From a virus, in the UHGV virus genome UHGV-0171999: 64,000 nucleotides of DNA; one strand, written 5' to 3'. Below are positions 44,936 through 50,701 of this stretch, in pieces. The notes beneath the pieces are model-generated. The model did not search any database and was not told the origin of the DNA. It worked only from the letters and a program-made list of their open reading frames with translations. The position numbers and the translations under genes were made by a program. The first letter of the stretch is position 1; each line of letters begins with the position of its first letter.

Positions 44936-45011
44936 CGAGGCATAGCTCAGAAGGAAGAGCAAGGACCTTCTAAGTCCTAGGTCGTAGGTTCGATCCCTAC
45001 TGCCTCGACCA
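44936..45011 (+). tRNA. tRNA-Arg (anticodon UCU), CCA encoded
   Basis: Acceptor CGAGGCA/TGCCTCG, anticodon loop CTTCTAA, T-loop TTCGATC. Confidence 0.8.
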
Positions 45012-45027
45012 ATTAAGTGAGGAAAAT

Positions 45028-45378
45028 ATGAAAGGTAATGTTTATTTAGTAGTTCATGATTTAACGTTCTATTTTAATCACAATGACACTGTTATTTCTG
45101 AACGTGTAATTAATTTGCTTTATCAGCATGCAGATTATGTTTATGTCGAAAACGAATATGGTCATTGGCAATTTCTCAAAAATCGTTCATTTGGTTTAGA
45201 TGGTTACGAATACTTTGAACGTAAAGACCTTTTAGATAAAATTCCGTTATCTACACAATATCAAAATCATAAGTCTTTATATAAATGCCGTCCAATTCGA
45301 AATGCTGAATCCGCGTATGAAGCAATTGATTTATGGCGTAAACGCCGTGAACAGATTGATTCTTTAAAAGAATATTAA
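45028..45378 (+). CDS. hypothetical protein within the tRNA region
   Basis: 116 aa ORF with GAGG RBS directly after tRNA-Arg. Confidence 0.6.
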   Translation: MKGNVYLVVHDLTFYFNHNDTVISERVINLLYQHADYVYVENEYGHWQFLKNRSFGLDGYEYFERKDLLDKIPLSTQYQNHKSLYKCRPIRNAESAYEAIDLWRKRREQIDSLKEY

Positions 45379-45380
45379 GA

Positions 45381-45690
45381 AACCGGGTCGCTACCGGTAA
45401 GTCGTCGGACTGATGTTCCCTGCGTAAGGACTGGCATTAACAAATCTTTACGATCTGTTAATGTCCCCTTACATCACAGCAGAAACGGCGCACAGAATTA
45501 TCGATTCGAGGAAATATCTTTGCCGTAAGCCGAGTAGCGTTTTTGACGGAACGTTCGGATATGGTCGAGATATGGCCTTTTAAAAATATTGAGTAGCGTC
45601 AACTGCTTAATAACCGGGTTCGAATCCCGGCGTTTCGTACAAACACTTGCCTTAGCAGGTGGAACCCCGACAAGGTTGCCGCAAGGCTTA
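45381..45690 (+). ncRNA. structured non-coding region, candidate small stable RNAs (T4 species 1/2-like)
   Basis: No plus-strand ORF over 310 bp; several hairpins; tRNA-like T-arm CCGGGTTCGAATCCCGG; ends at a terminator. Confidence 0.35.
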
Positions 45691-45717
45691 GCCCCGACCA
45701 AAAGGTTGGGGCTTTTT
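45691..45717 (+). terminator. rho-independent terminator closing the tRNA/small RNA unit
   Basis: GCCCCGACC-AAAA-GGTTGGGGC hairpin followed by TTTTT. Confidence 0.7.
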
Positions 45718-45850
45718 GGTATCTAGGCCTTTCTGGACCTCTCTAGGCATCATTTAGTTTCTACCCTTTATAATATATTATCCTATCCTTTAATTGCCCC
45801 TTTCATCCCTAGAATTCCCTAAAACTTTTTAAAAAATTTTTCACAAAACT

Positions 45851-45880
45851 GTTTACACCCCTGTTCTTCCATGGTACTAT
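45851..45880 (+). promoter_or_regulatory. T4-type early promoter
   Basis: -35 GTTTAC at 45851-45856, 18 nt spacer, -10 TACTAT at 45875-45880, preceded by A/T-rich UP-like tract. Confidence 0.6.
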
Positions 45881-45923
45881 ACAACTATCAACTACTGATA
45901 CAGAAAACAACTTGGAGAATGAA

Positions 45924-46187
45924 ATGGATAATTACGGCGAACTGTTCAACTTCTTTATGAAATGCGTTTCAGAAGATTTCGGTCGTACAGTGAATGATAT
46001 TAAAGTTATCGGTCCTGACCATCCGATGTTTGAAACTTACGCAGTAATGGGTAATGAAGATGGTCAGTGGTATACTGTAAAGGTTGTGATTAACATGTTC
46101 ACTGCTGAAGGTTATGTTAAACTGTCTTCTAAAGTTTACCATGATAACGACGAAATCGCAGAAGAATATTTCAATAATATGAAATAA
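45924..46187 (+). CDS. hypothetical protein
   Basis: 87 aa from ATG at 45924 with GGAG RBS; ORF-track start 45912 is TTG. Confidence 0.6.
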   Translation: MDNYGELFNFFMKCVSEDFGRTVNDIKVIGPDHPMFETYAVMGNEDGQWYTVKVVINMFTAEGYVKLSSKVYHDNDEIAEEYFNNMK

Positions 46188-46224
46188 GTTTACATAGGCT
46201 CATGATTGAGATATTATGAGCCTA
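46188..46224 (+). promoter_or_regulatory. early promoter embedded in a 9-bp stem-loop
   Basis: -35 GTTTAC at 46188-46193, -10 TATTAT at 46212-46217; hairpin TAGGCTCAT...ATGAGCCTA spans 46195-46224. Confidence 0.5.
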
Positions 46225-46291
46225 TAACTTGATGATAGAGTATAATACTACTTTTACGGATTTTAAATCTTAATCAACCTAAGGAAATACT

Positions 46292-46885
46292 ATGAACACA
46301 CTGAAGAAAATTGTTGAGTTTATTCGCACTAAACTTGGTTCTGCTATGGCTAAAAATTTATCTGTTGAAGAACAGTATACTGCTGCAGCAGCAAAACTAC
46401 TTGATAAAATTAAAGACCTAAAAACTGCTTCTGTTAAATCTATTAATGAAGAAAAACGTATTCGTGAACTTATTGTCGAAAAGAATCGACAGGCCGAATC
46501 AAAAGAGCGTGAAATTCGCAAGCTTCTTTCCGAAGGTCAAGATGTAACAATGCATGCTAAACTCGGCTTGCTATATCGTCGAACAGCTGAGCAGTTGACT
46601 ACTAAAGCTGATGGTTATGCTGAAATGCGAATTGAAATCGCCAAGAAAGTAGTTGAATTGGATGATGCTCGCCAAGAACTTGCAGTTAAATTGGAATATA
46701 TCCGTGAAACTCGTGCAGCAAATGCCCTTGGAATTAGTACTGCTGATGATGTAGTTGAAATTGCAGCGCTGACTAAGGTTGATATTGAAGATACTCTTGC
46801 TCGAGTTGAAACCTTTAATGGCAATATTTCTGGGGTTGAAACTACCTCTGCCGATGTTCAGGAATATATTAATTCTTTGAAATAA
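46292..46885 (+). CDS. coiled-coil protein, possibly PspA/IM30-like
   Basis: 197 aa; N-terminal amphipathic segment followed by long charged heptad-rich helices. Confidence 0.5.
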
Positions 46886-46890
46886 TGATA

Positions 46891-46906
46891 AGGGGCTTCG
46901 GCCCCT
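46891..46906 (+). terminator. stem-loop after the coiled-coil gene
   Basis: AGGGGC-TTCG-GCCCCT hairpin; weak T-run. Confidence 0.4.
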
Positions 46907-46926
46907 ATTACTTGGAGTAAATAGGA

Positions 46927-47532
46927 ATGAAAATGCAAAGTGATTTTAATTCAATGTTTGAAGAGTTCCAAAGACAGGTTGATGTTCCAGACCAATTACT
47001 AAATGCTCTTAAACGCATGGCAGAAGGACGTAATTACTATTGGGGTTCTTCATATGAAACTGATGAAAGTCTTTCTGGAAGATTTTCTAGAGGTAAAAAG
47101 TCTTTAATACGTCCTGGAATACTTATTAACAGTATTGAATCAATTCATTTATTAACATGCGATTTTGATGTTGAATTTACTGATTTCATTTCTCCTGAAT
47201 GGACGGTCTGTTATTTAAATGACGATTATGATTATCTTGGCGTTTATAGTTTAAGTGACGCATGGTTTAAACGTAATTTACAAAAGTCAAATTTATTTTA
47301 TATTGATACTACAGTAAAATTTCAGGGAAAGAAATATTTCTTTACTCTTATAGTTGACTCTGAAACAAAATATGAAAATAAGCGTATTCTTAGTAAAAAG
47401 AATATCTTGACTATTGTTGATGATCTTTTTGATAAATTCGTAGAAAATCCTAATTTTGAAAGCGATTTATTAGAAAAATTTGTTAAGGAATGCAGAGAAT
47501 ATGTCAAAGCCATCACTATACCTTCCAAGTAA
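46927..47532 (+). CDS. hypothetical protein, C-terminal FVKECR motif
   Basis: 201 aa ORF with RBS; C-terminus KFVKECREYVKAITIPSK. Confidence 0.6.
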   Translation: MKMQSDFNSMFEEFQRQVDVPDQLLNALKRMAEGRNYYWGSSYETDESLSGRFSRGKKSLIRPGILINSIESIHLLTCDFDVEFTDFISPEWTVCYLNDDYDYLGVYSLSDAWFKRNLQKSNLFYIDTTVKFQGKKYFFTLIVDSETKYENKRILSKKNILTIVDDLFDKFVENPNFESDLLEKFVKECREYVKAITIPSK

Positions 47533-47893
47533 ACCTTTGAAGTATGAATTAAAGCGCCAGATAATTTCTACCGATGTATTAATGGGTCCTGTGGTAGCTG
47601 TATCATTTGTGATTCTGCTGATTGCTGGAATGGTTATAGACGTTATGACTGATATTGAATCTGGTGTAATATTTGGAGCAACGCTAATTCTTCCATTAAT
47701 AATTCCGCTTTTATTAGTACCTGTAAATTTGGTAGGATACTGGTATCAAGGAAGACATTATCGTAAACGCGTACGTGATTGGAAAGCACAGTGTAAAAAG
47801 ATTAAAAAGGAACACCAGCTTAAACTAGATATGTATGAATTTAATGAAATTATGAAATTTGTTAAGGAATCACGATGCAAAAGCCAAAACTAA
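47501..47893 (+). CDS. small membrane protein, C-terminal FVKESRCK motif
   Basis: 130 aa from first ATG at 47501 (ORF-track start 47480 is TTG); hydrophobic core segments. Confidence 0.5.
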   Translation: MSKPSLYLPSKPLKYELKRQIISTDVLMGPVVAVSFVILLIAGMVIDVMTDIESGVIFGATLILPLIIPLLLVPVNLVGYWYQGRHYRKRVRDWKAQCKKIKKEHQLKLDMYEFNEIMKFVKESRCKSQN

Positions 47894-48237
47894 ATAAAGT
47901 CAAATATTCGTTTCCTGAGGCACTATTAATTCTTGCTGTGTCAGTATTTGCAGCTCTTGCAGGTAGTTTTATTGGATTAATGATTGACTGTATTATTTTA
48001 AACATCGATGGTTCAGCGATTATAACAGAGGTTTGGAGTGAACTTCGTTTTACTATAGCGATTACATTATTTTCATTCTTTGGCACCATGTTATATTTTC
48101 ATTATGATAATTTTAAAATAAATTGGCAAAGAAAAAAGGATTACAAAATACAATTAAAAGAATATAATAGCTATATGTCTTATATTGAAAATGAATCAAT
48201 GAAAGAGTTTGTGAGTGATTGTAGGAAAATCGGATGA
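47875..48237 (+). CDS. small membrane protein, C-terminal FVSDCRK motif
   Basis: 120 aa; two hydrophobic segments. Confidence 0.6.
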   Translation: MQKPKLNKVKYSFPEALLILAVSVFAALAGSFIGLMIDCIILNIDGSAIITEVWSELRFTIAITLFSFFGTMLYFHYDNFKINWQRKKDYKIQLKEYNSYMSYIENESMKEFVSDCRKIG

Positions 48238-48722
48238 TTTTAAAAACTCGCTGGTATGATTTAGATGATGGGGATGATGGCATTCCAGTTGATAGAGTTG
48301 ACTGGAATGGCTGTTCCGAAGATATGAAAAATTTGTTGATTAGGGAGTTTAGAATGGGATATCAACCAGTTAAGCCATCTACTATAACAGATGATAAATT
48401 CGTGTGTATTCAAAATGGCCGCGCTAAGTTAACGAATGCTGATTGGTTTACAAATAAGATTATGATTCTGTGGTATATCATTAGTCTTCCTGTGACATCA
48501 TTTGTATTTTGCTTCTTTGGAGAAAGTCCAGTAGGCAGAATGGGAGATTGGATTCTTTTAATCATACTTGTTAATATTTTGACAGCAGCAATACTATCAG
48601 GAATATGGTGTGTGTTCATCGAAATGCCATGGCGGTTACGTAAGCAGCAAAAGATTTTTGATGAAAAGAAATATACTCAAAATTTAAATAACTTTATCAC
48701 TGAATGCAGGAAATTAAAATGA
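48234..48722 (+). CDS. membrane protein, C-terminal FITECRK motif
   Basis: 162 aa; hydrophobic segments; ATG overlaps upstream stop (ATGA). Confidence 0.6.
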   Translation: MILKTRWYDLDDGDDGIPVDRVDWNGCSEDMKNLLIREFRMGYQPVKPSTITDDKFVCIQNGRAKLTNADWFTNKIMILWYIISLPVTSFVFCFFGESPVGRMGDWILLIILVNILTAAILSGIWCVFIEMPWRLRKQQKIFDEKKYTQNLNNFITECRKLK

Positions 48723-49159
48723 AAACACTATCAGCTGGTATTATCTTTATGACAGAAGATAAAGATTTATTTATGGGACGAGTTACTGGTTCTCGTAAAC
48801 ATGGAATGATGGCACATCGCTGGGATATTCCAAAGGGCCGCGTAGAAAATTCTGATTTAAACGCGCTAGATGCAGCACGAAGAGAATGCTTAGAAGAGAC
48901 CGGTTTTAGCAATTATAATCCAGACCTTCTAGAAGACCTAGGTGTATTTAAATATTCTAGTAATAAAGACTTACAGTTATTTTATTATACGATTCCAGTA
49001 GAGCATGAGATGTTTAGAAATTGCCATTGCGAGTCTTATTTTGAAAATAAAGATGGAGTTATGATTCCAGAGATGGATGCTTTTGCTCTTATTCCTCGTA
49101 CTCAGTGGCAATATGTGATGGGTCCTTCACTTTACCGAATAATGAACAGCCTCTTTTAA
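48704..49159 (+). CDS. nudE: Nudix hydrolase
   Basis: 151 aa; Nudix box GRVENSDLNALDAARRECLEETGF; immediately upstream of e as in T4. Confidence 0.85.
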   Translation: MQEIKMKTLSAGIIFMTEDKDLFMGRVTGSRKHGMMAHRWDIPKGRVENSDLNALDAARRECLEETGFSNYNPDLLEDLGVFKYSSNKDLQLFYYTIPVEHEMFRNCHCESYFENKDGVMIPEMDAFALIPRTQWQYVMGPSLYRIMNSLF

Positions 49160-49962
<803 letters not shown>

Positions 49963-49963
49963 T

Positions 49964-49993
49964 GTTTACTTCCTCCAAGGACTTTGATACTAT
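49964..49993 (+). promoter_or_regulatory. T4-type early promoter of denV inside a 10-bp stem-loop
   Basis: -35 GTTTAC at 49964-49969, -10 TACTAT at 49988-49993; TTCCTCCAAG at 49970-49979 pairs with CTTGGAGGAA at 50007-50016 (includes the RBS). Confidence 0.6.
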
Positions 49994-50020
49994 ACATTCA
50001 TCAACTACTTGGAGGAAATT

Positions 50021-50434
50021 ATGACTCGTATCAATTTAACACTTGTTTCTGAATTGACCGACCAACATCTTATGGCTGAGTATCGTGAATTACCACGCGT
50101 ATTTGGTGTAGTTCGTAAACATGTTCAAAACGGTAAACGTGTAAAGGATTTTAAAATCTCTCCAACATTTATCTTAGGCACAGGTCACGTAACATTCTTT
50201 TACGACAAACTCGAATTTTTACGTTTACGTCAAATCGAGCTAATCACTGAATGCTTGAAACGTGGTTTCAAAATCAAGGACACGACTGTCCAGGATATTT
50301 CCGACATCCCTGCCGAATTTCGTAATAATTATGTCCCGTCCGAAGCGTCCATTGCGATAAGTCAAGCACGCTTAGATGAAAAAATTGCTCAACGTCCTAC
50401 TTGGTACAAATACTATGGTAAATCAATCTACTAA
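50021..50434 (+). CDS. denV: endonuclease V, pyrimidine dimer DNA glycosylase
   Basis: 137 aa from ATG at 50021; [29 protein letters not shown]... as T4 endonuclease V. Confidence 0.9.
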
Positions 50435-50440
50435 GGAAAA

Positions 50441-50701
50441 ATGAAAATGTATCAAGAATTTATCATTGAAGCAGATGCCAAAGGTCCTAAATTTAAAGTT
50501 AAAGCTTTCATTGGTGATGCGGAAGACTTTGGCTCATTAAAACGTAATGGGTATTTTTTCTTAGGTGGCGATGGTAAAGAAATCAACACCTATGCAAAAC
50601 GTAGTGAAATTGCTTATGTTGTAGCAAGCCCTAAAGTAGATGTTGACGATATTGGATATGATTTTAACAACTTCGGAATTATTTCTGGCGGTAAAGCTTA
50701 A
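50441..50701 (+). CDS. ipII: internal protein II-like (capsid targeting sequence protein)
   Basis: 86 aa; N-terminus MKMYQEFIIEA; position between denV and ipIII. Confidence 0.65.
   Translation: MKMYQEFIIEADAKGPKFKVKAFIGDAEDFGSLKRNGYFFLGGDGKEINTYAKRSEIAYVVASPKVDVDDIGYDFNNFGIISGGKA

Follow-up and report, generated by a model that had tools for sequence, protein, structure and literature searches.

Four consecutive genes of a T4-like phage, e.5, e.4, e.3 and e.2, share a short C-terminal tail, which recurs on about 31 families of otherwise dissimilar proteins in the same position of related genomes, essentially always downstream of the conserved gene e.6. The tail is apparently a previously undescribed signature that is conserved at the protein level (a literature search by gene name found no published description of it). 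We consider it an about even proposition that the tail is a docking helix, which would bring hypervariable proteins to one conserved cytoplasmic partner.

The window (the whole stretch of DNA analysed here, 64,000 nt of UHGV virus genome UHGV-0171999) comes from a T4-like phage (Tequatrovirus; Tequatrovirus genomes share 94–96% nucleotide identity). Using PHROG profiles, we were able to identify the four ORFs as e.5, e.4, e.3 and e.2 (full coverage, E 2e-107 to 2e-57), and the gene order e.6-e.5-e.4-e.3-e.2-nudE-e matches the T4 annotation of the homologous region. Table 1 lists the features of the locus. A GC-rich hairpin splits e.6 from a run of overlapping genes that starts with e.5 and finishes with nudE, which does not carry the motif. 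Three of the four motif genes had been called membrane proteins in the initial annotation, and they are: e.4 (residues 31–49 and 55–73), e.3 and e.2 (76–94 and 106–124) have two strong hydrophobic segments each, and e.5 has none. The e.2 protein starts with about 75 soluble residues, followed by the two transmembrane segments and the tail. e.5 has an internal near-repeat, LFDKFVEN / LLEKFVKEC. The four are early accessory genes that are dispensable in the laboratory (knockdown of T4 e.2 to e.8 in laboratory E. coli has no fitness effect; PMC11879866, supplementary file 15).

Table 1. Genes, C-terminal tails and other features of the e.6 to nudE locus (window positions; SD: Shine-Dalgarno sequence)
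Feature	Coordinates	Strand	Description
e.6	46292..46885	+	conserved helical protein, first gene of the cluster; speculative partner of the tails
GC-rich hairpin AGGGGCTTCGGCCCCT	46891..46906	+	between e.6 and e.5
e.5	46927..47532	+	soluble, 201 aa; PHROG 2607; precomputed Pfam PF26876; divergent 'e.5-position' superfamily
e.5 tail LEKFVKECRE	47470..47499	+	core FVKECR 47479-47496; SD of e.4 is AAGGAA 47485-47490
e.4	47501..47893	+	130 aa, two transmembrane segments; PHROG 2604; T4 annotation
e.4 tail IMKFVKESRC	47849..47878	+	core FVKESR 47858-47875 (Ser for Cys); SD of e.3 is AAGGAA 47864-47869
e.3	47875..48237	+	120 aa, two transmembrane segments; PHROG 2330
e.3 tail MKEFVSDCRK	48199..48228	+	core FVSDCR 48208-48225; SD of e.2 is AGGA 48223-48226
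e.2	48234..48722	+	162 aa; PHROG 2203
e.2 tail LNNFITECRK	48684..48713	+	core FITECR 48693-48710; SD of nudE is AGGA 48708-48711
nudE (Nudix hydrolase)	48719..49159	+	Pfam NUDIX E 2e-13; T4 annotation

As first noticed, the four genes do have a motif in common: the pattern F[VI].[ED][CS]R has exactly four matches in the six-frame translation of the window, all at these C-termini, as compared to 0.42 expected by chance from composition (100 shuffles gave a mean of 0.37 and a maximum of 2). The motif is followed by 5 residues in e.4, by 3 in both e.3 and e.2, and by 11 in e.5, which continues as EYVKAITIPSK. Profile searches with e.6 to e.2 and with 10 motif carriers from other genera returned nothing above noise in Pfam, NCBIfam and PADLOC, the last of which gave no match to anti-phage defence proteins. 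No match was found in a PDB sequence search with e.6, the e.5 superfamily and e.2, nor to any Rfam RNA family at E up to 1 (positions 45000-50000).

A comparison of the locus across T4-like genomes, which the initial annotation had called for, extends the motif to more than 10 genera. We scored the core [FW]-[IV]-x-x-C-[RK] in the last 35 aa of ORFs from 52 T4-like loci, and found it in 140 of 1452 ORFs on the coding strand as compared to 1 of 644 on the opposite strand. It is present in 114 of the 593 ORFs downstream of e.6 and in 2 of the 570 upstream, both of them on one short contig in which e.6 is not at its standard position. For the gene directly after e.6 (39 loci), the strict motif is found in 35 cases and an F[IV]xxC-I variant in 2, and the remaining 2 are shortened ORFs (145 and 79 aa) without the motif. 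At one locus (L012), the tail is on a separate downstream ORF, consistent with a gene split by a frameshift. There is no occurrence in the rest of T4 (100 kb), and none in all 164 kb of RB49, a phage from which e.6 is absent as well. Searching IMG/VR with a degenerate DNA pattern for E-x-F-I-K-E-C-R-K gave four matches, two in Mosigvirus e.3 and two in unrelated proteins that look like chance; beyond T4-like phages, this search therefore gives no hint of the motif.

The consensus reads hydrophobic(-3)-[E/N/D](-2)-x-F(0)-[I/V](+1)-x-x-C(+4)-[R/K](+5)-[K/G/R], with L, F, I or V at position -3 and Glu at +3 in only 9 of 31 families. It is not absolutely fixed: the e.4 lineage, along with a few more, has S, I, V or M where Cys is expected (S, I or V in e.4 orthologues), and CC2-like Aeromonas phages have Ile for Arg.

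Outside the tail, little connects the carriers. BLAST sorts the bodies of the 137 unique motif proteins into 31 families, with either zero or two transmembrane segments. The initial annotation read the four genes as a tandemly expanded family, and alignment of their profiles bears this out weakly, for the three membrane proteins only. According to hhalign, e.4 and e.3 match with a probability of 95%, which drops to 46% (E 2e-4) when the tail is removed, and e.3 and e.2 with 88%, which drops to 1%. Besides PHROG 2330, e.3 has a weak full-length cross-match to PHROG 2604 of e.4 (E 0.076), and a phmmer search with e.3 against 1.84 billion representative proteins returned 5 matches only, reaching neither e.4 nor e.2. 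From these comparisons e.4, e.3 and e.2 appear weakly related. The alignment of e.5 to the other three is limited to 9–10 motif columns. Without its tail, e.5 matches a Klebsiella/Kosakonia family (hhalign 93%), and only N98, F185, C189 and R190 are invariant in the alignment of the e.5 superfamily. Judged by sequence, e.5 belongs to a separate soluble superfamily, with the tail as the sole part it has in common with its neighbours.

Because the same tail is found on unrelated bodies and is nearly the only conserved part of the e.5 superfamily, we infer that it could serve as a docking or address helix for hypervariable proteins, with e.6 named speculatively as the conserved cytoplasmic partner; we would put the docking reading at roughly equal chances of being right or wrong. 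The hydrophobic positions -3, 0, +1 and +4 are spaced as expected for one face of an amphipathic helix. By the positive-inside rule, the tails of the two-transmembrane proteins would be placed in the cytoplasm, alongside the soluble e.5-type proteins, and the helix would bind there to one common, conserved partner. The predicted model of e.5 is of low confidence (pLDDT 61, about 55 for the tail helix), too low to tell whether the tail helix is free or packed.

As the source of the conservation, the initial annotation had allowed for the protein level, translational coupling or both. As the genes overlap (ATGA or similar), the tail codons also hold the downstream SD, and the overlap reported initially is seen at all four junctions. 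AAGGAA lies 10 nt before the ATG of e.4 and 5 nt before that of e.3 (this ATG overlaps the Arg codon, cgATGc), and AGGA lies 7 nt before the ATGs of both e.2 and nudE. If conservation were in the nucleic acid, the peptide would be a by-product of the ribosome-binding site or coupling signal of the next gene, or of a DNA junction for cassette shuffling. Besides the SDs, two observations fit this: e.5 and e.4 have 16 identical nucleotides in common (AAATTTGTTAAGGAAT), and AGG is enriched where the motif runs up to the next start (it encodes the Arg in 22 of 72 genes with at most 4 residues after the motif vs 1 of 65 with 5 or more; for AGR vs CGN by closeness to the next start, Fisher p = 0.004). 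However, the SD is in the K-E codons of e.5 and e.4 and in the R-K codons of e.3 and e.2, and thus in two registers relative to the motif. The match extends beyond the nucleotides that encode the SD, as the codons for F and I/V are upstream of it and are not purine-rich, and the motif is kept when it lies 5–25 codons from the gene end (its distance to the stop ranges from 0 to 25 residues, and it is within the last 6–31 residues of every carrier). The motif codons vary, as the initial annotation had remarked: those for F, I, C and R are used as in the background, Arg is encoded by all six of its codons, and some families have W for F, a replacement that needs two nucleotide changes. There is also no Rfam match, and the frequency of identical codons at identical residues (0.52 within genomes vs 0.47 between genomes) shows no excess of nucleotide identity. 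A nucleic-acid origin of the similarity is by now largely refuted, and we leave it a minimal probability. The protein level is therefore primary: residues are kept, synonymous codon choice is at background, and the motif is also retained where no downstream start is close by. Selection acts on the protein, and the SD is a secondary overlay and not the cause of conservation. Protein and coupling thus both play a part, in that the choice of AGG/AGA for Arg, and no other codon choice, is adapted to the downstream SD. Two further candidates were rejected: gene conversion or a recombination junction on the codon identities just given, and a nascent-peptide or ribosome arrest motif on the varying distance to the stop.

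Among protein-level explanations, it is possible, if less probable than docking, that the tail is the slowest-evolving remnant of tandem paralogues, with the e.5 body grafted on, which would be kept for the proteins' own folding or self-association (e.g. helix bundling of two-transmembrane oligomers) and would need no external partner. The carriers are adjacent genes on the same strand, small two-transmembrane proteins diverge rapidly, some bodies remain weakly similar without the tail (e.4–e.3 as given above, e.2 vs families f23 and f25 at 65–79%, f19–f28 at 94%), and the near-repeat in e.5 suggests helix-helix packing. Against this stand the e.5 superfamily and the small soluble families f6, f9, f11, f16, f21 and f27, which resemble the membrane proteins only in the tail (there is no evident reason why the same six residues should serve the folding of both an alpha/beta globular protein and a two-transmembrane hairpin), as well as the failure of the e.3 phmmer search to reach e.4 or e.2. 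A special case of a common partner would be a host protease or adaptor (FtsH, ClpXP, Lon or Tsp type), for which the tail would be a C-terminal degron that keeps early accessory proteins short-lived. Such degrons are known in bacteria, early accessory proteins may need a short life, and the tail is C-terminal, cytoplasmic on membrane and soluble proteins alike, and basic at its end (RK, RGK, RRK). We regard a degron as unlikely, given that as many as 25 residues can follow the motif, that to our knowledge it is unlike degrons of the ssrA, MuA and LpxC type, and that restriction to one cluster and joint absence with e.6 in RB49 would be unexpected for a general host degron.

Less probable still, the tail might mirror the T4 capsid targeting sequence (MKTYQEFIAE) at the C-terminus, so that its carriers would go to the prohead core or the membrane-bound site of prohead initiation, with the gp21 protease cutting after I/L-x-E. 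The two have the core x-F-I-x-E in common, e.2 reads FITE|CRK, and genes with an N-terminal capsid targeting sequence adjoin the cluster (49681 and 50441); moreover, Alt and gp21 are also processed C-terminally (PMC9026906). Y4 and F7 are the targeting residues of the capsid targeting sequence, and I8 and E10 those for processing (PMC9026906). Yet that sequence acts at the N-terminus, and the critical positions are V in e.5 and e.4 and D in e.3, such that only e.2 fits I-x-E. Glu at +3 is as infrequent as noted above, the invariant C-R has no counterpart, packaging is impossible for two-transmembrane proteins, and E-F-I should occur by chance about a dozen times per T4 proteome (our own estimate).

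Coming back to a docking tail, e.6 is the best genomic fit for its partner, as it is highly conserved (50–100% identity across genera), helical, directly upstream of the motif genes in every locus examined and absent from RB49, which has no motif. The synteny of e.6 with the motif genes means that phylogeny confounds their co-occurrence, and RB49 is a single negative case. The predicted model of e.6 is a helical hairpin or bundle similar to membrane-associated scaffolds, and its structural matches (BAR domains, Snf7) are generic for any long helical bundle. No sequence match that would put e.6 in PspA_IM30 or Snf7 was found in Pfam, NCBIfam or PDB at E up to 1-10. The lineage with the R-to-I tail has two changes in e.6 (D124N and R127L), which are anecdotal, being non-significant by our own estimate given the number of changes in that lineage. 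The choice of e.6 as common partner is speculative. A rather doubtful extension is that e.6 is a membrane-associated hub and the tail a modular address tag, such that lineage-specific soluble effectors (e.5-type) and two-transmembrane anchors (e.4, e.3 and e.2 types) would plug in via the Phi-E-x-F-I-x-x-C-R helix. If true, the arrangement would be a cytoplasmic counterpart of the loading of variable internal proteins into the head by the capsid targeting sequence, and e.6 to nudE would form a single functional system and not a string of ORFans.

Several known systems resemble parts of this arrangement. Small membrane anchors recruit a helical scaffold via their cytoplasmic tails in the case of PspB/PspC with PspA and of LiaI with LiaH. 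The cluster is similar in having the conserved, long-helical e.6 beside small membrane proteins with putative cytoplasmic C-terminal helices, and by this analogy a PspA/LiaH-like mode is plausible for the tails, as a lead only. MIT-interacting motifs are short amphipathic C-terminal helices on ESCRT-III paralogues that have one reader domain in common. They likewise provide a set of proteins with a short C-terminal helix, but they have another consensus, are eukaryotic or archaeal and are carried by homologous proteins, and no MIT-like reader was identified for the tail. Closer to the locus, the T4 capsid targeting sequence (of IPI, IPII and IPIII) is also a terminal peptide of about 10 residues on hypervariable, unrelated accessory proteins in the same genome neighbourhood, with one conserved address (core E-F-I-x-E vs x-F-I-x-E in the tail) for many variable cargos (PMC9026906). 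It differs in being N-terminal and without Cys-Arg, in needing Glu for cleavage and in having packaged soluble carriers, whereas the tail is C-terminal, with near-invariant C-R and variable +3, on early proteins, some of them integral to the membrane. Coupled overlapping genes of T4 (ATGA-type) have the SD inside the upstream coding sequence with adapted AGG/AGA, as at all four junctions here, but ordinary coupling accounts neither for a conserved peptide with F, I and C, whose codons are non-purine, nor for its persistence far from a junction. PeSLs, mobile promoter-terminator cassettes that drive shuffling in T4-type hyperplastic regions (PMC2839356, PMC4122927), are short conserved elements that recur beside hypervariable genes in T4-like genomes too; they are intergenic and conserved in nucleotides, whereas the tail is coding and conserved in amino acids.

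The ORFs e.2 to e.8 of T4 have no laboratory phenotype (PMC11879866 supplement) and belong to a hypervariable region, different from genus to genus. A near-invariant six-residue tail connects the otherwise unrecognisable families to one conserved neighbour. It provides an annotation rule for these ORFans across Straboviridae and an experimental handle (bait peptides, point mutants and tail swaps). The region is also a clean case of dual coding, in which synonymous codons of a conserved protein motif are recruited as the SD of the overlapping gene.

The automatic labels 'site-specific RNA endonuclease' (e.5), 'sulfurtransferase' (e.4 and e.3) and 'host specificity protein' (e.6), which some database records carry, are unsupported by every profile search made here. 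We also note that e.2 is intact in the window (162 aa), as compared to 102 aa in the T4 reference annotation.

The window, which reads in the opposite orientation to the T4 map, belongs to a Tequatrovirus (T4-like) genome, and its region 46200-49200 shares 94–96% nucleotide identity with many T4-like phages and is collinear with T4 e.6-e.5-e.4-e.3-e.2-nudE-e. The initial annotation had reported a common C-terminal motif, F[VI].[ED][CS]R, in four consecutive genes, and a search of the 64 kb window in all six frames returned exactly four matches (0.42 expected from composition; mean 0.37 and maximum 2 in 100 shuffles), all in frame and 3–11 residues before the stop in e.5, e.4, e.3 and e.2, which with nudE form a run of mutually overlapping genes. 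As that annotation stated, three of the four encode membrane proteins. Profile scans found no Pfam, NCBIfam or PADLOC matches for the four proteins; the Pfam release that was scanned lacks PF26876, the accession precomputed for e.5. Some database records label e.5 as site-specific RNA endonuclease, e.4 and e.3 as sulfurtransferase, and e.6 as host specificity protein, and none of these labels is supported by any result here.

Features of the e.6–nudE region and of related loci (window coordinates unless a locus is named)
Feature	Coordinates	Length	Character	Full-length PHROG match	Motif match
e.8	45924-46187
sigma-70-like promoter match	46189-46217		TTTACA-17-TATTAT
e.6	46292-46885
hairpin	46891-46906		AGGGGCTTCGGCCCCT; GC-rich, UUCG-type loop
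e.5	46927-47532	201 aa	soluble	2607	47479-47496
e.4	47501-47893	130 aa	two transmembrane segments	2604	47858-47875
e.3	47875-48237	120 aa	two transmembrane segments	2330	48208-48225
e.2	48234-48722	162 aa	soluble N-terminal part and two transmembrane segments	2203	48693-48710
nudE	48719-49159
small ORF	49681-49962		capsid-targeting-type N-terminus
denV	50009-50434
small ORF	50441-50701		capsid-targeting-type N-terminus
e.2 of T4 (L001, NC_000866)	67491-67960	102 aa	as annotated
e.5-type genes, CC2-like Aeromonas phage (L046)	6651-7932		two genes ending SF[IV]xYC-I
second tandem family, L002	4231-5025
second tandem family, L003	3851-4890
second tandem family, L005	6710-8315
second tandem family, L006	6302-6828
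second tandem family, L010	6863-8131

The observation is real, highly non-random and reaches well beyond these four genes. We took the homologous region from T4, Mosigvirus, Dhakavirus, Gaprivervirus, Jiaodavirus, Kanagawavirus, Karamvirus, Biquartavirus, Ishigurovirus and Pseudotevenvirus, together with 42 additional IMG/VR loci anchored on e.6, and looked for a strict core, [FW][IV]xxC[RK], within the last 35 residues of each ORF. This core is found in 140 of 1452 coding-strand ORFs as compared to 1 of 644 opposite-strand ORFs. The comparison across T4-like genomes that had been proposed shows it recurring downstream of e.6 (114/593 ORFs, versus 2/570 upstream, both in one short contig where e.6 is off its standard position). 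The gene directly after e.6 has the strict motif in 35 of 39 loci and an F[IV]xxC-I variant in two; the remaining two begin with a short ORF (145 and 79 aa) that has no motif. One fetched locus (L012) has the tail on a separate downstream ORF, which fits a frameshift-split gene. No further core was found in the window, in a further 100 kb of T4, or in RB49 (a Straboviridae coliphage, 164 kb genome), where an HMM search with E up to 10 did not find e.6 either. A degenerate DNA probe for ExFIKECRK had just four matches in IMG/VR, two in Mosigvirus e.3 genes and two that look like chance. A conserved C-terminal peptide thereby marks out a group of accessory proteins that T4-like phages encode downstream of e.6; a literature search found no description of this motif.

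After tail removal, BLAST groups the 137 unique carriers into 31 families, with bodies that are in some cases soluble (80–290 aa) and in many have two transmembrane segments. Numbering the aromatic residue as 0, the consensus over one representative per family is hydrophobic at -3 (L13 F8 I4 V3), E/N/D at -2 and any residue at -1, followed by F28/W3, I26/V5, two variable positions, C31, R28/K3 and then K/G/R. The reading as a tandemly expanded family stands only in part. In profile-profile comparisons, e.4 and e.3 match with 95% probability, and still with 46% once the tail is removed (E 2e-4, 44 columns), but for e.3 and e.2 the value falls from 88% to 1%, and e.5 aligns with each of the others over 9–10 columns only; a phmmer search of 1.84 billion representatives with e.3 returned five proteins, neither e.4 nor e.2 among them. 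By contrast, proteins that occupy the e.5 position across genera are linked even without tails (93% over 152 columns between e.5 and the Klebsiella/Kosakonia family; further links at 79% and 88%). The carriers thus comprise the soluble superfamily of e.5, a loosely connected set of families with two transmembrane segments, and a number of small soluble families, and the tail is their sole common feature. Besides Met1, only N98, F185, C189 and R190 are invariant in a 14-sequence alignment of the e.5 superfamily, three of these four belonging to the motif. We note a second tandem family in other genera, absent from the window and T4, in which 3–6 consecutive small soluble proteins (65–105 aa) inserted between e.3-like and e.2-like genes share the end G-x-W-[VIL]-S-S-S-x-x-C, with the stop right after.

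As originally noted, the motif codons overlap the ribosome-binding site of the next gene. They contain its Shine-Dalgarno (SD) sequence, though in two registers: in e.5 and e.4 it is AAGGAA, over the K-E codons, and in e.3 and e.2 it is AGGA, over the R-K codons. The e.4 Arg codon also overlaps the e.3 start codon. A purely nucleic-acid cause of the similarity is largely refuted, and we regard it as very improbable. Motif codons vary, as the initial annotation had seen, and track the background of the same genes (F: TTT 89, TTC 41; I: ATT 76, ATC 20, ATA 12; C: TGT 80, TGC 57), all six Arg codons are in use, and several families have replaced F by W, a change of two nucleotides. The motif end lies 0–25 residues from the stop, a variability that also excludes a nascent-peptide arrest motif, and in some carriers the motif is retained far from any downstream start (15 residues and then a 30-nt gap follow it in a Karamvirus 117-aa protein, and about 30 residues in an RB43 205-aa protein). 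Identical residues use identical codons nearly as often between genomes (0.47) as within them (0.52), so nothing points to gene conversion or to a junction element in the DNA, and Rfam gave no matches. An RNA-level signal is real: AGG encodes the Arg in 22 of the 72 genes with at most 4 residues after the motif, as compared to 1 of 65 with at least 5 (AGR versus CGN by distance, p = 0.004, or 0.06 once collapsed to families). Of the options first listed (protein level, translational coupling or both), "both" holds, the protein level being the primary one: the evidence favours selection on the peptide as peptide, and dual coding is secondary, synonymous codons being recruited as SD where the next gene begins nearby.

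As to what the peptide does, the best explanation, to which we give about even credence, is that it docks the carriers to a common partner that is itself conserved. The hydrophobic positions -3, 0, +1 and +4 have i, i+3, i+4, i+7 spacing and would form one face of an amphipathic helix; in the AF2 model the e.5 motif falls, at low confidence, inside a C-terminal helix (179–195). In e.4, e.3 and e.2, K and R abound at the N-terminus and beyond the second transmembrane helix and the inter-helix loop is acidic, so by the positive-inside rule the tail is predicted to be cytoplasmic, as in the soluble carriers. A docking motif would be expected to show this pattern, a short and exposed helix that hardly varies, carried by fast-evolving bodies unrelated to one another. 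Such a helix would bring all carriers onto one partner; we infer that the tail is a shared terminal address or docking peptide, a mechanism now open to direct experimental test. A less probable alternative is that the carriers are paralogues, each of which needs the tail to fold or oligomerise; the weak body-level similarity kept by some membrane families speaks for it, and the tail on unrelated soluble folds speaks against it. That the tail is a C-terminal degron recognised by a host protease seems improbable. Still more so is a counterpart of the capsid targeting sequence MKTYQEFIAE, in which F7 and Y4 direct targeting and I8 and E10 direct gp21 cleavage (PMC9026906). The two have x-F-I-x-E in common, C-terminal processing by gp21 is known for Alt (PMC9026906), and the cluster is flanked by genes whose N-termini are of this type (49681, 50441); however, the Glu is present in only 9 of 31 families, the C-R of the tail has no equivalent, and membrane proteins could not be packaged.

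For a docking peptide, e.6 is the obvious, if speculative, candidate partner, since it is always directly upstream, strongly conserved (50–100% identity and 55 invariant columns across 9 genera, far above its neighbours), absent together with the motif from RB49, and predicted to consist of a helix at the N-terminus, a helical hairpin of 56/60 residues and short helices at the C-terminus (pLDDT 76). In CC2-like Aeromonas phages (L046, L047), two e.5-type genes after e.6 have Arg replaced by Ile in the motif, and there alone e.6 alters otherwise invariant residues (R12T, D124N, R127L, K162D); these changes may be compensatory, though a single lineage is not significant. In a CRISPRi-ART screen of T4, e.2 to e.8 are listed as of unknown essentiality and scored 'Not Fit', i.e. 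knockdown without fitness effect in laboratory E. coli (PMC11879866, supplementary file 15).

Other features of the region, among them several differences from the T4 reference, were also observed. T4 e.2 differs from the intact window gene by two 1-nt indels that lie about 95 nt from each other and compensate, which put the segment coding the second transmembrane helix out of frame before the 3' end (NNFITECRKLK*) returns to the original frame; PHROGs therefore keeps separate families for the two halves (35263, 35580), and either T4 e.2 is a pseudogene or an error in the old sequencing is responsible. The T4 annotation begins nudE at an ATG inside the Glu-Cys codons of the e.2 motif (gaATGc, MQEIKMKT...; window 48704-48721), and the second ATG at 48719 (MKTLSAG...), 7 nt after AGGA, looks like a better start. 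The GC hairpin between e.6 and the overlapping genes is terminator-like on the minus strand only in a simple scan, the coding strand having no clear U-tract. T4 e.7 (111 aa) is absent from the window (stretch 45924-46291), where e.6 starts 104 nt after e.8 and the gap holds the promoter match. Finally, denV sits between the two small ORFs with capsid-targeting-type N-termini (one being MKMYQEFIIE...), as compared to the T4 order e-ipIII-ipII-denV, so the internal-protein genes are arranged differently.
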